This document shows positions 59,705 to 64,000 of a stretch of DNA of 64,000 nucleotides, piece by piece (positions within the stretch are counted from its first letter, which is position 1; each line of letters opens with the position of its first letter). Made by a program: the position numbers and the translations under genes. The stretch is from contig JBMNFY010000016.1 in the NCBI GenBank assembly GCA_050949565.1, positions 32,001 to 96,000 of the forward strand, in the 5' to 3' direction. Below the pieces are notes generated by a model. It saw only the letters and a list, made by a program, of their open reading frames with translations, did no database searches and had not been told where the DNA came from. This DNA comes from Kiritimatiellia bacterium (GTDB taxonomy: Bacteria > Verrucomicrobiota > Kiritimatiellia > RFP12 > UBA1067).

Positions 59705-61972
59705 ATGAAGCACTTCCTCCTTGTGGCTAGGCTGATCGGCCTGACGGCCTGTATCATGGTTGCGGTACGCGCATGGGCGCAAGGCGGCGGCATGGTGCCG
59801 TTGCCGAAGCAGCCGGGCAACGATGGCCTCGAAATCACGGCAGACAAATTCGAGGTCGATCAAAAGAGCGGATGGACTACCGCCACGGGCAACGTACGCA
59901 TCAAAACCGGCGAGCACGAGATGAGCGCCGATCGCGTGCGCTTGCATCAGGAGAAGGGGGACGTCCAAGCACGCGGTAACGTGGTGTTGCGTCAGCGCGG
60001 ATTCGGCGCGTGGTCCGGCGATTACATTGAGTACAATTACAAGACGGGCAAAGGTCTCACCGGCCTCGGCGAACTGCGGGCCGGTGTCTACCACATTGGC
60101 GCCAAAGATGTGACCCGGCGCGAGGACGGCCGGTTCGACGCCCGCTACGCCGAAATCACCACCTGCACCAATGGTCCGGGCCACCGCCACTGGCGCATGA
60201 CCGGACACGTGCGCTACAAGGACAATGACTACATCGAGGTTTTCGATGCCGTGCCGTGGCTGTTCGGCGTACCCTTCGCCTACCTCCCGTATTGGTTCCG
60301 CGACCTCGACACGCACTACGGCTTCCGGCTGGTGCCCGGCTACACCTCGCGCTGGGGCGCCTACATGCTGGGCGGCTATGTCTACAACATCTACAGATCG
60401 CCGCATGAGAACGGCCCCAAGTTGGACGGCACCACACGCCTCGACTACCGCACCAAGCGCGGTGTGGCTGTTGGCCAGAACCTGCGCTGGGATCTCAAGG
60501 AGTACGGGCGCGGCAGATTCGAATCATACTACGCTTGGGACCAAGACCCGCCCGACAGGCGGCGCGACAGAAACTGGATGTCTGACGTAGACGACAACCG
60601 TTACCGTTTCCGCCTCTTCCATGAGGCCGATATCACGCCGCGCGATCAGTTTATTTTGCGTGGCACGGTCAACAGCGACTCCGAGATGCGCCACGATTTC
60701 TTCGAGAGAGAAAATCGTGGCGAAAGCACACCGATGAACTTCGTCTCGTTGGCGCACCGCGAGCACACGTGGGCTGCGGGCGCGATGGTGAGCGGTCCCC
60801 TCAATGATTTCTACGCCGGCGTGGCGCGCCTGCCCGAGGGCTGGTTGAACATCGTGCCGCAGCCGCTCTTTGGTACCGGCTTGAACTACGAGAGCCAGAC
60901 GCGCGCCGGCATTCTCAACCGCGACGCCGCCCGCTACGATCGCGCCCTGCCGAAATTCATGTACTATCCGGGTTCTTGGGCCGACTACGATCTGACGCGC
61001 GTCGACACTGCTCACCGCGTAACCGCGCCGGTAAAGATCGGTGATGCGGTCAGCGTCGTACCGCGTGCCGGTTATCGCGCTACTTGGTACTCGGACTCCG
61101 AATCCGACAGCAGCGTCGCTCGTCACAGTGCCGATCTCGGTGTTGAAGCTTCCACGCGCGCGACCGCCGACTTCGACAATGGCTACCGGCATGTTTTTGA
61201 GCCGTATCTCGATTACAGCTACCAGCCCACGCACTTCGATCTGGATAATGGACGCGCCTACACCTTCGACCGTTTCGACCGCTCGATCGAGTGGTTCGAT
61301 CAGTTCGGCATGGACGGCACATGGCTTCCTTATGATTGGCACGGTGTGCGGCCCGGTGTGCGCAACCTGCTTCAGACGCGCGACGAGAAGGGACGCATGC
61401 GCACGGTGGTCGATTGGGACGTCTACACCGCCTTCCAAATCGATGCCGACGGCCCGCTCGACGAGGGGGGCCTGCGCATGGCTGGCAGCCGGTTGCTTGT
61501 CAGTCCGGACGAAGCGCTCGATATCAAGGTACAAGGCGATTGGGACGTCGAAGAGGAAACCTTCGCCTACGTCGATCTGAGCGCCTTCTACAAGCTCAAC
61601 GAGAAAATCCGTTTCGGCGGCGGCTATCTTGCGCGCGACCACCAGTTGTACGACTACGATGTTTCACCGATCATGCAGTGGAACCGGGTCAAGGAGAGCT
61701 TGATATACGGCGGCTTCACGCACGACATTAACGATACATGGTCGTGGAGCCTCTACACGCGCTACGACCTGCGCTACAACGAGGTAGACGAGGTGGGGGG
61801 CTTCATCCAGTACAGCCTCGACTGCCTAGTCTTCCAACTCCGTGCGGCATACATCAACGACTTCGAGCGCATCGATCGCATCAGCGAGCGCGACAACGAC
61901 TTCCGCATCTCCATCATGATGTGGCTGCGCGCGCATGACCGCGCACCGGACGACGAGTGGCTGACCTGGTAG
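59705..61972 (+). CDS. lptD: LPS-assembly outer membrane protein LptD
   Basis: Signal peptide, OstA-like ITAD..ATGNV, ITTC, GVPFAYLPY, G...RWG, DYRTKRG, C-terminal barrel with YSLDC. Confidence 0.82.
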   Translation: MKHFLLVARLIGLTACIMVAVRAWAQGGGMVPLPKQPGNDGLEITADKFEVDQKSGWTTATGNVRIKTGEHEMSADRVRLHQEKGDVQARGNVVLRQRGFGAWSGDYIEYNYKTGKGLTGLGELRAGVYHIGAKDVTRREDGRFDARYAEITTCTNGPGHRHWRMTGHVRYKDNDYIEVFDAVPWLFGVPFAYLPYWFRDLDTHYGFRLVPGYTSRWGAYMLGGYVYNIYRSPHENGPKLDGTTRLDYRTKRGVAVGQNLRWDLKEYGRGRFESYYAWDQDPPDRRRDRNWMSDVDDNRYRFRLFHEADITPRDQFILRGTVNSDSEMRHDFFERENRGESTPMNFVSLAHREHTWAAGAMVSGPLNDFYAGVARLPEGWLNIVPQPLFGTGLNYESQTRAGILNRDAARYDRALPKFMYYPGSWADYDLTRVDTAHRVTAPVKIGDAVSVVPRAGYRATWYSDSESDSSVARHSADLGVEASTRATADFDNGYRHVFEPYLDYSYQPTHFDLDNGRAYTFDRFDRSIEWFDQFGMDGTWLPYDWHGVRPGVRNLLQTRDEKGRMRTVVDWDVYTAFQIDADGPLDEGGLRMAGSRLLVSPDEALDIKVQGDWDVEEETFAYVDLSAFYKLNEKIRFGGGYLARDHQLYDYDVSPIMQWNRVKESLIYGGFTHDINDTWSWSLYTRYDLRYNEVDEVGGFIQYSLDCLVFQLRAAYINDFERIDRISERDNDFRISIMMWLRAHDRAPDDEWLTW

Positions 61973-61976
61973 CCCC

Positions 61977-62011
61977 TCGGTTGCGATTCAACACGTTGAA
62001 TTGCAACCGAA
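61977..62011. terminator. Long hairpin after lptD
   Basis: TCGGTTGCGATTCAAC-AC-GTTGAATTGCAACCGA, one G-T pair; no U tract. Confidence 0.45.
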
Positions 62012-62154
62012 GGAGGAGTTAGCCTGCCGCTCGGCTTCGCCACGAAAAAACCATGGAGTAACTGCGACAAAATGTCCAAGTTGTAGGCAAGGAAGGAGTG
62101 TTTAGGTCTCAACACTCGAGGGCGGAGGGGGCATCCTGTTTGTGCCTCGCCTCA

Positions 62155-62303
62155 GGGTCACATATTCGAATATGTGACCCGGGCGGTGAGCAGTGAACAA
62201 AGGCTTTGCCGTGAGAGCTGACGGTCATCCGCTAGACCAATGCAGTGCGCGGCGTAGCGGGCGTGACGGGCGTCTTAGGGTCACATATTCGAATATGTGA
62301 CCC
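62155..62303. repeat. Palindrome block A: two copies of GGGTCACATATTCGAATATGTGACCC (62155-62180, 62278-62303)
   Basis: Perfect loop-less 26-bp palindromes, 97-bp spacer. Confidence 0.95.
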
Positions 62304-62320
62304 GGGGAGGAGCATGGAAA

Positions 62321-62896
62321 ATGAGAGAGGGAAAGAATGGGGCGAACTTGGCGCCAACCCTCTGGCGGACATGCCGGGTGCTGGCCAATCCCGACCGGTT
62401 GCGTTGCCTCAAGGCAGTGCTGGCGGTGCCGGGGCGGACCGTAGAGGACGTCGCCACCGTAGTTGGGCTGACAGAGCCTCAGACGAGCCTCGCTTTGCGG
62501 GCGTTGCAGTCGCGCGGCATTTTGTCGTCCCGCCGCAGGAGTCGATGGGCGCATTATTACCCAGAGGCAGATGCTTCGGTCGTGGCGGCCAGCCAGTTTT
62601 TGAGCGCCGCCAAAAGTGCCCTCATTGACAATCACATGTCCGAGCGGGAGATGAGCAATGCGATGCGAGCCTACACCCACCCGCGCCGCATCGCGATAGT
62701 GAGGGCGCTGGCGCACGAGGACAATCTTCAGCGGGACGAGATTGGCAGCATGTTGGGCATAAGCCGAGAGGCGATGATCCGCCACCTGCGTAAACTGAAG
62801 ACACTCGGTGTCGTCCGATTGAAAGACGAGACCTACTCCCTTGCCAAGCCCAGCTCGGGTCTCGCGGAATCCCTCCGCGCCATCATCCTCGCGTGA
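62321..62896 (+). CDS. Tandem (double) ArsR-like winged-helix DNA-binding protein
   Basis: Two wHTH units: LANPDRLRCL..TVEDVA....L.EP.TS..LR.L..RG and THPRRIAIV..L..DEI...LGISR.AM.RHLRKL...G; GGAGGAG RBS before ATG 62321. Confidence 0.82.
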   Translation: MREGKNGANLAPTLWRTCRVLANPDRLRCLKAVLAVPGRTVEDVATVVGLTEPQTSLALRALQSRGILSSRRRSRWAHYYPEADASVVAASQFLSAAKSALIDNHMSEREMSNAMRAYTHPRRIAIVRALAHEDNLQRDEIGSMLGISREAMIRHLRKLKTLGVVRLKDETYSLAKPSSGLAESLRAIILA

Positions 62897-62956
62897 CCCG
62901 CCCCGTCGACTGCCCGTCCGTCACTCTTCCCTCGCCATCCGCATTCCACCACCCCC

Positions 62957-63098
62957 GGGTCACATATTCGAATATGTGACCCGGGGGGACAAAGAGGGTT
63001 TTACCGTGAGAACCGACTGTGATCCACAGGGCTAAGGCGATACGGGGAGTGGTGGGTACGGCGGGTGTCGTAGGGTCACATATTCGAATATGTGACCC
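62957..63098. repeat. Palindrome block B: two copies of GGGTCACATATTCGAATATGTGACCC (62957-62982, 63073-63098)
   Basis: Identical palindromes; the 90-bp spacer is homologous to the block A spacer. Confidence 0.95.
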
Positions 63099-63282
63099 GG
63101 GCGTGGGAGCTTTGATTTCAGGTTTCATTGCTCGCCATTGGTTATCGCTGCCGGTCGTCTGTCGGTCTTCTGCTTGTACAATCACGCAGGGGCTCGCAGA
63201 AGCCACTACACTGTCCTTTGCGCTGTGCCCAGAGGTGGCAGTTGAGAGCCGGGGAGTTCCCAAACCTTGAGGGCAAGGAGGT

Positions 63283-64000
63283 TCAGTTCTCGTTCGAGTG
63301 CAGTCCGCCTGAACCGGCGTCGAACTCGATGTTGGCGCGTTCAGGATCGCCGGGCAGCGCCTTGGAGCAGCTCCAGATGCAGGCCCCGCAATGGACGCAC
63401 TTTTCGCGGTCGAACTCGGGCGGGGCGCCCTCTTCTCCAGGCATTAGAGCCTGCGCAGAACAAATCTCAATGCATGTGCGCTCTGTGCAGGAGGCGCAGA
63501 GTGCGGGATCGGCGAAGGTCACGTGATTGGCGAAGCCCGCCGCGGCTTGCACCTTGCCGCCCTTGAAGAGCGCGTCCTGATGCGACATCAACAATGTGCC
63601 GTCATACGGAATCTCGGGCCAGCCGGCCAGCGTCATGATTGCATCATGGAGCGGTTGCCGCGCCTTGGCGCAGGTCTCGACCGCTTCGCTGAGTGCGGCG
63701 GGCGCGATGCGTTCGCCGTAAACGCTCGCCAGCGTCGGAATACGCTGCGAAGGGGGGACGGAGTCGACCGAGAGGTTGAGCATGCCGCGGGTCATACCGG
63801 TCATGCCGGTGCCCATCATGCCAAGCATGAAGCCCTTGCCAAAGCCGTCGCGCGCCTTCTTAGCAGCTTGCAATTCGGCATTGAGCGGATCCTGACGTCG
63901 CCGCTGCACATACGCGCCGGTCAGCGCGGCCTTGGAAAAAGGCTGATCGCGCTTAAGCAGATCGATCACCCCTTCAGCCAACAGCACGCCGCTGCGCCAC
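63283..64000 (-). CDS. ETF-quinone oxidoreductase/FixC-FixX-like protein, C-terminal 4Fe-4S region (5' part outside window)
   Basis: C..C....CIEIC and FDREKCVHCGAC; G.GGL C-terminus. Confidence 0.7.
   Translation of the reverse strand, partial: WRSGVLLAEGVIDLLKRDQPFSKAALTGAYVQRRRQDPLNAELQAAKKARDGFGKGFMLGMMGTGMTGMTRGMLNLSVDSVPPSQRIPTLASVYGERIAPAALSEAVETCAKARQPLHDAIMTLAGWPEIPYDGTLLMSHQDALFKGGKVQAAAGFANHVTFADPALCASCTERTCIEICSAQALMPGEEGAPPEFDREKCVHCGACIWSCSKALPGDPERANIEFDAGSGGLHSNEN

Follow-up and report, generated by a model that had tools for sequence, protein, structure and literature searches.

A double-ArsR gene enclosed by four identical palindromes

We analysed a 64,000-nucleotide stretch of a Kiritimatiellia genome (contig JBMNFY010000016.1 of assembly GCA_050949565.1, positions 32,001 to 96,000; hereafter, the window) and, in particular, a cassette that lies between lptD and a convergent redox gene and consists of a gene for a protein with two ArsR-type winged-helix domains, flanked on each side by two copies of a perfect 26-bp palindrome, denoted P (GGGTCACATATTCGAATATGTGACCC). 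The gene occupies positions 62321..62896 of the forward strand, from ATG to stop codon, encodes 191 amino acids in a single chain and is preceded by the ribosome-binding site (RBS) GGAGGA at 62305-62310, ten bases 5′ of the ATG. A search of the window tolerating up to 3 mismatches found four copies of P, all exact, which start at 62155, 62278, 62957 and 63073 and are each directly followed on the 3′ side by GGG; none of 100 dinucleotide shuffles of the window (0/100) yielded any match. The distal upstream copy, P1 (62155..62180), is separated from the proximal copy, P2 (62278..62303; 1 nt 5′ of the RBS), by the 97-bp spacer 1 (62181..62277, forward strand), a candidate promoter region that is homologous both to spacer 2 and to a block on contig C4 described below. 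Downstream of the gene, the third copy is extended to a perfect palindrome of 36 bp with an arm of 18 (P3, 62952..62987), which we consider a candidate 3′ operator and transcript stop, and is followed by the 90-bp spacer 2 (62983..63072, forward strand), an equally oriented but diverged duplicate of spacer 1, and by the distal copy P4 (63073..63098). P1, P2 and P4 are putative operators.

When the two spacers are aligned, 59 columns are identical, 20 differ by transitions and 11 by transversions, and 8 contain gaps; in the last 70 columns, 46 are identical and 16 of the 23 substitutions are transitions, the other 7 being transversions, and the sole gap column stems from the third aligned row rather than from either window spacer. 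As complete blocks, the upstream and downstream P-spacer-P units match over 155 bp at 75% identity (blastn). Contigs assembled from two public DNA runs end at every P, and all segments between the copies (62053-62183, 62156-62305, 62278-62981, 62958-63100 and 63074-63500) were recovered with 0 differences, so that the four-copy layout is supported. Thus, exact search, alignment and contigs agree with an earlier note on this DNA, made from the bare sequence, which had described four identical palindromes around the gene, each followed by GGG, a third copy of 36 bp, and spacers that align without gaps over their last 70 or so bases and differ mostly by transitions; its concern that sequencing reads might fail to support four copies did not materialize. 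One RNA-library contig of run X18 carries a strain variant, T>G at 62158 within P1, which renders the distal palindrome imperfect; because this substitution breaks the identity of P1, the contig could be assembled through the repeat.

One chain with two ArsR/SmtB folds

Two stretches of the protein match NF033788, the model of ArsR/SmtB metalloregulators (76.6 bits against a cutoff of 55), and the Pfam families HTH_5 (35 bits, cutoff 22), HTH_20 (28 bits, cutoff 27) and others are matched as well; all matches of the protein in Pfam and NCBIfam are to winged-helix families, and phmmer connects it to SmtB (1r22) with an E value of 6.5e-6. The AlphaFold2 model, built from a 48-sequence alignment (pLDDT 93.9, pTM 0.87), is a single body composed of two alpha1-alpha5-plus-wing units. 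In this predicted model, residues 6-106 superpose on CzrA (4ggg_B; Z 12.1, root-mean-square deviation (rmsd) 3.2, 91 residues aligned) and residues 102-191 on BigR (3pqk_B; Z 11.4, rmsd 2.2, 86 residues aligned), and the N-terminal half also superposes on whole chains of SqrR, HlyU and CadC (Z about 11-12), the C-terminal half on HlyU and mycobacterial SmtB (Z about 11). According to the model, one chain carries two complete ArsR/SmtB folds, in agreement with the double winged-helix ArsR gene with its own RBS that the earlier note had read from the translation. By the usual criterion, an ArsR protein is a homodimer of ~100-120-aa chains; here, a single chain of 191 aa holds both folds.

Among solved structures, Foldseek and VIA-align found no chain that spans both halves in the same arrangement, the good matches covering one half each. 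The tandem winged-helix proteins SelB, RPC62 and ScpB, which Foldseek retrieved from the PDB, were rejected as counterparts, their rmsd of 13-15 Å indicating a different arrangement. BLASTP of half 1 against half 2 produced no usable alignment (E 2.0), and the duplication or fusion is therefore old. The equivalog models of named sensors score well under their cutoffs (e.g., CmtR, 28.9 vs 150; BigR, 27.4 vs 155), and assignment to a defense system was dismissed given that PADLOC gives generic winged-helix matches alone (Csa3, CasR). A two-copy complex prediction scored 0.00, a value that, coming from a run without controls, has no bearing for or against dimers. The family, which its source labels only as ‘ArsR family transcriptional regulator’, is essentially limited to Kiritimatiellia-type metagenome-assembled genomes (MAGs) and Pontiella, with up to 7 paralogues per genome. 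A gene caller based on codon usage gave the window gene a score of 20.2 for 199 codons and skipped two other family members in the same genome (C17:684886-685395 and C17:33859-34395), which hints at atypical codon usage in the double-ArsR family.

Each protein lineage is paired with its own palindrome

The genome that contains the window (G000) encodes three double-ArsR paralogues, namely, A, the window gene with its site P, B (C17:684886) and C (C17:33859), all three of which have their own palindrome (3/3). Paralogue B is preceded by TTCCACACCTTGAAAGGTGTGGAA, in two perfect copies and a third, hybrid one, and around paralogue C (C17:33859-34395) lie six copies of GCCCACACCTTTCAAGGTGTGGGC; the B and C proteins are 84-86% identical, and their palindromes differ solely in the outer two bases. 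Orthologues of A from another taxonomic family (G139, G134 and G073), at 66-68% protein identity, share the same 20-bp core, TCACATATTCGAATATGTGA, and their spacers have no similarity, by eye, to those of the window. In a relative with a single-contig genome (G027), 4 of 4 paralogues have a private palindrome. Each protein lineage has its own matching palindrome, and the central test proposed in the earlier note, whether homologues possess their own palindromes that co-vary with the protein, turned out positive: 3/3 paralogues in G000, 4/4 in G027, and a core retained among orthologues. The distribution of the P core itself is patchy (21 of 301 genomes).

The pairing extends across the family. 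From 227 relatives found in the genome collection, we retrieved the best 80 loci and searched for perfect palindromes of the family type within 450 bp upstream and downstream of the gene. Such palindromes were found upstream at 46/80 loci, downstream at 26/80, on both sides at 22/80 and on either side at 50/80, contrary to the possibility, raised earlier, that homologues lack them, and all 22 two-sided loci have the same half-site on both sides (22/22). Palindrome density is 1.86 per kb upstream, 1.06 downstream and 0.06 elsewhere in the loci. Some perfect palindrome lies near the gene at 55/80 loci, and in 51/55 of these, the half-sites share a common register, with a CA(C/T)AC box at positions -9 to -5 relative to the dyad. 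Flanking open reading frame (ORF) families each recur in at most 4 of the 80 loci; the sole constant partner of the double-ArsR gene is the palindrome.

We also compared protein residues with palindrome bases, after 4 of the 55 loci had been dropped because their palindromes were out of register. The best pair, in an analysis uncorrected for kinship, is DNA position -7 with R75 in the wing of the first domain (z 14.6), and the recognition helix of the second domain co-varies, with the same caveat of kinship, with positions -11, -9 and -5. The covariation is suggestive only and does not tell which of the two domains would read the DNA.

Sites elsewhere in the genomes

The 4.66-Mb assembly contains 11 copies of P, 10 of them exact and one with two symmetric changes, and none with 1 or 3-6 mismatches; 4 copies lie at the gene and 7 are remote. 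Thus, P is not the genome-wide repetitive extragenic palindrome (REP) unlinked to the gene that the earlier note had considered. Perfect copies of families B and C number 11 and 13, respectively, in G000, whereas the 4 families of G027 comprise 4, 4, 6 and 9 copies, of which 2, 2, 2 and 4 are at the cognate gene. These site numbers (11, 11 and 13 in one genome, 4, 4, 6 and 9 in the other) fit small regulons. The remote copies occupy long intergenic regions next to functionally unrelated genes, and a regulon defined by the function of the neighbours was rejected for want of a coherent theme among the genes at remote sites. Genes of the GFO/IDH/MocA type were seen, as a raw count, beside remote palindromes 4 times (C20:70617 and C17:835851 in G000; loci L188 and L190 in G027).

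Similarity among the remote P copies mostly ends 5-10 bp beyond the palindrome, the exceptions being doublet blocks and a pair on contig C20. The doublet block on C4 matches the downstream block of the window locus over 145 bp at 69%. This block (C4:21393-21519) appears as a third P-spacer-P unit, with a degenerate second P. It shares the orientation of the block at the regulator gene and is followed, after ~145 bp, by a 191-aa ORF with CxxC zinc-ribbon motifs that was not called as a gene (L033:1366-1941) and for which PADLOC gave no match. The two C20 copies (C20:70383 and C20:73230, locus L037) share flanks of 85 bp at 96% and bracket a two-gene operon for a GFO/IDH/MocA oxidoreductase and a xylose-isomerase-like TIM barrel, an arrangement that mirrors the bracketing of the regulator gene; in the close relative G004, only the downstream P of this operon is present, with one mismatch.

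The P sites, 26-38 bp long including extensions and devoid of separate terminal repeats, sit among other high-copy modules of 30-90 bp. One copy, on contig C1, is located inside a 305-bp element whose inverted ends measure 27 nt; the element is part of a 362-bp block, present in G000 and G002 and replaced by 8 bp in G004, where the flanks are 94-98% identical. In comparisons of strains at C17:1315495 and at the C4 site, the contigs break off close to the repeats. The terminal inverted repeat (TIR) motif of this carrier was not found near the other P copies within 4 mismatches, and passenger status is therefore demonstrated for one P copy only.

Several sites are hybrids, combining an A-like left half, CCACATATT, with a B-type right half, or halves of B and C, and in some otherwise homologous copies, the central GA/TC dinucleotide is flipped (hybrid and flipped sites in G000 lie at C17:684795, C6:159435, C7:153211, C7:156583, C8:214738, C2:86493, C17:904767 and C8:214906). 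In these sequences, half-sites behave as exchangeable modules. At C17:478308-479008 (L034), three palindromes, one an A-variant, one of C-type and one B-like, lie upstream of one gene for a 1261-aa Laminin_G_3 protein, the last palindrome 14 bp 5′ of the start codon, and this gene may be a convergence point of three regulators. At C7:153208-156784 (L042), a single-copy gene for a DDE_Tnp_1 transposase lies between two directly repeated family B doublets of ~205 bp; we rejected the doublets as ends of a transposase element, given that they are direct rather than inverted repeats and that the transposase is single-copy.

Placement of the sites and signals of transcription

At the 46 loci with an upstream site, the proximal palindrome has its end in most cases 1-26 nt ahead of where the tblastn match begins and, in several loci, extends up to or into the beginning of the coding match; in the orthologues, it has the same position relative to RBS and ATG as P2. 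The spacers of G134 and G139 contain TTGCCC or TTGCTT, followed after 16-18 nt by TAATAAT or AATAAT, with the palindrome just 3′, and we read them, tentatively and from the sequence, as sigma-70-like promoters that place the palindrome between promoter and RBS.

On the other side of the gene, the palindrome commonly begins less than 60 nt after the stop codon and, across loci, frequently bears a GC-rich arm extension (arms 18-25), in one case with flanking A4/T4 runs. The predicted hairpins have energies of -22.9 and -33.5 kcal/mol, with z scores of about -5.3 to -5.7, the RNA hairpin of P3 being the more stable (-33.5 kcal/mol, z -5.66). Rfam returned two miRNA-hairpin matches, on P3 only and far under the gathering score. 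RNA-library contigs of two studies stop at 62942 and at 62980/62988, where DNA contigs continue, and leave 62989-63135 (run X15) and 62943-63286 (run X18) without cover, although contigs cannot prove absent transcription; these contig ends are a weak hint that transcripts end at P3. The extended downstream copy probably also halts transcription. Without interruption, a single RNA-library contig extends from lptD into the double-ArsR gene.

A lineage-specific and stable region

The cassette lies entirely within a 1310-bp intergenic region (61973..63282) that is shared by G000 and G002 (loci L012 and L087). Upstream and outside of the unit is lptD (59705..61972, forward strand; 755 aa), with Pfam matches to LptD_N (38 bits) and LptD (25.9 bits) above cutoff; downstream, at 63283..64000 on the reverse strand and likewise outside, lies the 3′ part of a gene for an ETF-QO-like Fe-S oxidoreductase, 617 aa long in the genome, whose full-length product matches ETFQO_UQ-bd and Fer4_6 in Pfam and which is convergent with the double-ArsR gene. 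Domain searches, in which Pfam and NCBIfam revealed no recombinase or nuclease in the cassette, and the neighbour census of 80 loci uphold the earlier description of a self-contained unit without recombinase, nuclease or cargo between these two genes.

In two genomes of the same genus, G005 and G006, the distance from the lptD stop codon to the redox gene is only about 165 and 130 bp, respectively, with neither regulator gene nor P. Given that lptD nearly abuts the redox gene in these genomes, the 1310-bp region is lineage-specific. We searched for traces of mobility. Deletion or inversion joints are absent from the contigs of two DNA runs and two RNA-library runs, although contigs drop rare forms; 14 DNA runs, which belong to 13 studies, retain the locus at 0.99 of the words sampled; and the window sequence has no visible target duplication or direct repeat outside P1 and P4. 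These results lend no support to the suggestion of the earlier note that the unit may be a selfish element mobilised in trans, and joints of the excised or inverted forms that it had proposed to look for were not seen in these contigs. Nor does the cassette qualify as a miniature transposable element bounded by inverted repeats (MITE), as it encodes a 191-aa protein and has no visible direct repeats beyond P1 and P4. Because other contigs of G004 are 98.3-98.5% identical to G000 in DNA throughout, conservation of P between these two genomes says nothing on selection.

Discussion

The double-ArsR gene of the window probably encodes a self-repressing single-chain regulator, with P as its private putative operator. 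P has the length and dyad symmetry of an ordinary ArsR/SmtB operator and is located at the RBS; its layout can be labelled ‘12-2-12’, which we take to be the ordinary geometry of such operators, and autoregulation is typical of the ArsR/SmtB family. Given this ordinary size and dyad and the placement of the palindrome between promoter and RBS in orthologues, an autoregulated repressor with its operator is the simplest reading, and simpler than the new kind of mobile element that the earlier note had envisaged. What was observed is that each protein lineage pairs with a palindrome of its own, where the sites lie, that the fold is double and that partner genes are absent; from this we infer binding, repression, termination and a recombination history as follows. 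The protein would bind P2, between the promoter region in spacer 1 and the RBS, with P1 assisting, and would thereby silence its own synthesis and stop read-through from lptD. It would also bind P3, after the stop codon. The GC-extended 36-bp P3 would form a stable RNA hairpin, and because this hairpin is predicted to be so stable, we propose that transcripts end there, before the convergent redox gene. The 2+2 layout could have originated from unequal recombination between identical P copies, resulting in a tandem duplication of operator, promoter and gene, followed by loss of the second gene; afterwards, the spacers would have drifted (to 75% identity), while selection for binding kept all four P intact. 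The other P copies would form a small private set, seeded by copying, either in doublet blocks or as passengers in MITE-like mosaics.

In SqrR, according to a preprint, one homodimer binds each operator, with two winged helix-turn-helix motifs in successive major grooves (10.64898/2026.05.15.721447). Because the canonical ArsR arrangement is one homodimer per operator, the double chain is a plausible covalent stand-in for a dimer and, by analogy, one such chain would mimic the SqrR homodimer on its operator.

Several observations weigh against a regulator with its operator. No perfect palindrome of the family type was found at 30 of the 80 loci, where imperfect ones were not searched for, and in G073, the palindromes are ~320 bp upstream of the gene, with palindrome-free promoter-like sequence closer to it. 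A consensus scan of 61900-63400 detected no sigma-70-like promoter, and none of the P copies was called as a terminator. The neighbours of the remote sites are unrelated (ArgRS, G6PD, PGK, ExbB, ABC ATPases, DnaJ, PrmA and glycosidases), and 2 of the 7 remote copies lie, by rough gene calls, between convergent genes, where no promoter is expected. Furthermore, the remote copies are exact 24-26-bp replicas, which is how repeat elements behave; as point mutation cannot produce such replicas in unrelated places, the sites must have spread by copying. Finally, the two recognition helices of the protein differ, yet the sites are perfectly symmetric, which is unexpected for a fixed asymmetric pseudo-dimer, and the symmetric arm-extension variants (AGGG..CCCT, CCCCAGGG..CCCTGGGG and TGTG..CACA) would also fit hairpin pairing. 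The symmetry puzzle might be solved if the protein bound in either of two degenerate orientations, if each site took two chains, or if hairpin or cruciform pairing contributed.

Some of these features would be accounted for by a repeat partnership resembling that of REPIN and RAYT but built on a DNA-binding protein, where low-copy mobile repeats and a nested cognate binding factor constitute a semi-selfish lineage, the factor either recruiting host enzymes for copying or controlling and silencing the repeats. We consider such a partnership unlikely, even though it agrees with the one private repeat family per paralogue and the gene flanked by its own repeats, with the exact replicas at unrelated intergenic loci, and with remote doublets of preserved spacing (the C4 block, the ~205-bp B doublets, of which there are 3, and 135-bp doublets in G027) and tandem arrays with a period of 100-170 bp. 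It would also accommodate the presence/absence polymorphism of the P-containing 362-bp block, with 8 bp in its stead in G004, the chimeric B/C and A/B half-sites and central GA/TC flips, the lineage-specific cassette at lptD and patchy P core (21/301 genomes), and up to 7 paralogues per genome lacking a conserved neighbour. However, the protein has no catalytic domain, both halves being plain ArsR folds; families comprise 4-13 copies rather than tens to hundreds; the contigs contain no joints, and 14 DNA runs, from 13 studies in all, show a stable locus; the operator-like position at the RBS is conserved; and the sole indel-polymorphic copy, the one on C1, rides within the inverted repeats of another element, so that P itself need not be mobile. 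A broader conjecture, that the double-ArsR genes of Kiritimatiellia and their copy-pasted private sites are self-perpetuating units that duplicate, diverge, re-seed the genome and wire or insulate genes, strikes us as similarly doubtful. Such units would amount to a lasting partnership of the REPIN/RAYT type with a non-catalytic repressor in the place of the transposase, their sites occurring as doublets, in arrays and aboard MITE-like carriers. We rate lower still the proposal that the protein is architectural, chains bound on both sides pairing to loop out the unit or to roadblock it and thus shielding it from transcription of its neighbours, with autoregulation as a by-product. The DNA-looping or nucleoid-organising protein of the earlier note survives in this form, being compatible with sites on both sides of the gene that always have the same half-site (22/80 loci), the two P that bracket the C20 operon, a gene set between co-directional and convergent neighbours, the RNA-library contig that enters the gene from lptD, and the doublets and arrays, which suggest cooperative binding to multiple sites. 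By contrast, nothing observed points to self-association, a downstream site is missing at 24 of the 46 loci that have an upstream one, most remote sites are single, and the C20 operon of G004 retains the downstream copy alone, with one mismatch.

Very improbable, in our judgement, are two further explanations. In one, the palindromes would be recombination sites for a recombinase encoded elsewhere (akin to integron attC, Xer/dif or invertons), with the gene as a cassette or the spacer as an invertible promoter. Identical sites do flank a single promoter-proximal gene, the P copies, being palindromic, serve as direct and inverted repeats at once, the B/C and A/B chimeras are joined at the centre, and the cassette is absent from lptD in G005 and G006. 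Nevertheless, the site tracks the enclosed protein even among paralogues of the same genome, which a shared recombinase would not need, the contigs reveal no joints, and because B and C have a common 20-bp core, B/C chimeras can come from ordinary homologous exchange. In the other explanation, the palindromes would function in RNA, as 5′ and 3′ hairpins of the mRNA that govern stability or translation, their stems bound by the winged-helix protein. The very stable predicted hairpins, the upstream palindromes that reach or overlap the start of the coding match in several loci, the symmetric variation of the arm extensions, and the SECIS-RNA-bound winged helices of SelB listed by Foldseek, albeit at an rmsd of 13-15 Å, point in this direction. 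For both halves of the protein, however, DNA-binding ArsR repressors are much the better match (Z 11-12), there is no need for remote copies that lie between convergent genes or upstream of promoters to be transcribed, and Rfam yields only sub-threshold hairpin noise. Thus, the self-repressing regulator with its private operator remains the explanation that we favour.

Relation to known systems and implications

The nearest described architectures are ArsR/SmtB autoregulation, the REPIN/RAYT system and, as a classical parallel, the lambda immunity region. With the ArsR/SmtB repressors (SmtB, CzrA, CadC, SqrR, BigR, HlyU and NolR), the double-ArsR proteins share the family of hidden Markov models, the fold of each half and a dyad of ~26 bp, the putative operator, at their own promoter region; unlike in those repressors, two folds are fused, perfect palindromes surround the gene in a 2+2 layout, no cargo is adjacent, and many paralogues, each with a private site, are present per genome. 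In the immunity region of phage lambda, cI lies between the operator arrays OL and OR, and looping provides cooperative autoregulation. The likeness consists in a repressor gene bracketed by multiple dyad operators of its own, putative in the present case, whereas the divergent lytic promoters and phage genes of lambda have no equivalent here, the palindromes are identical and perfect, and the regulator is of a single-chain ArsR type.

A single-copy gene flanked by its own palindromes, one repeat family per paralogue, spaced doublets and scattered intergenic copies are all features reported for REP/REPIN-RAYT (PMC3337134, 10.1101/2022.05.22.493013, PMC3733652), and all have counterparts in the double-ArsR family: the gene flanked by its own repeat family, separate for each paralogue, the doublets and the intergenic scatter. 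The differences are that the partner is a winged-helix protein without the HUH/Y1 transposase domain of the IS200/IS605-like kind, that each family has 4-13 copies rather than tens to hundreds, and that the proximal copy is operator-like. The REP head that adjoins the palindrome is reported to be GTAG or CGTC (PMC3733652); the flanks of the 11 P copies have no common tetranucleotide, and only P4 is preceded by GTA running into its first G. The C1 copy, in its 305-bp TIR element within a block missing from a close strain, resembles MITEs and the mosaic repeats of the genome; unlike MITEs, P lacks separate repeats at its ends and is linked to a family of proteins, and the window cassette is protein-coding.

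Full-text literature searches returned no account of a chain with two ArsR folds or of regulator genes enclosed by private palindromes. If the self-repressing reading is correct, this would be the first described family of single-chain, i.e., covalently duplicated, ArsR/SmtB repressors, and it would offer dozens of presumably orthogonal repressor-operator pairs, each consisting of a one-chain protein of ~190 aa and a perfect palindrome of 24-26 bp. Several of these pairs would coexist in a cell without shared sites and could serve as a toolkit for synthetic circuits. Paralogues B and C, with 85% identical proteins, sites that differ in two outer bases, and natural chimeras, make a clean model for the co-divergence of a protein and its operator. 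The family also poses a structural question, how an asymmetric two-domain chain selects perfectly symmetric sites, and an evolutionary one, as the dissemination of sites by copying rather than by point mutation bears on the growth of regulons and on the boundary between regulatory sites and selfish repeats.

Other features of the surroundings

The short gap between lptD and the redox gene in G005 and G006 (L051 and L052, first ~170 bp) consists of tracts of TCCTAAAT-like heptamers. In G004, the C-terminal part of the lptD product is just 87% identical in protein to that of G000 (L055, L085 and L086), which leaves a choice between a hypervariable lptD region and a G004 MAG that mixes strains. 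Between the terminator hairpin of lptD and P1, the window holds a high-copy repeat module unrelated to P (62014..62098), of which blastn detects 8 other copies at 84-96% identity; copies of this 80-90-bp module lie on contigs C3, C8, C10, C11 and C17, and the summed contig depth rises in the bin 62005-62065, over the module.

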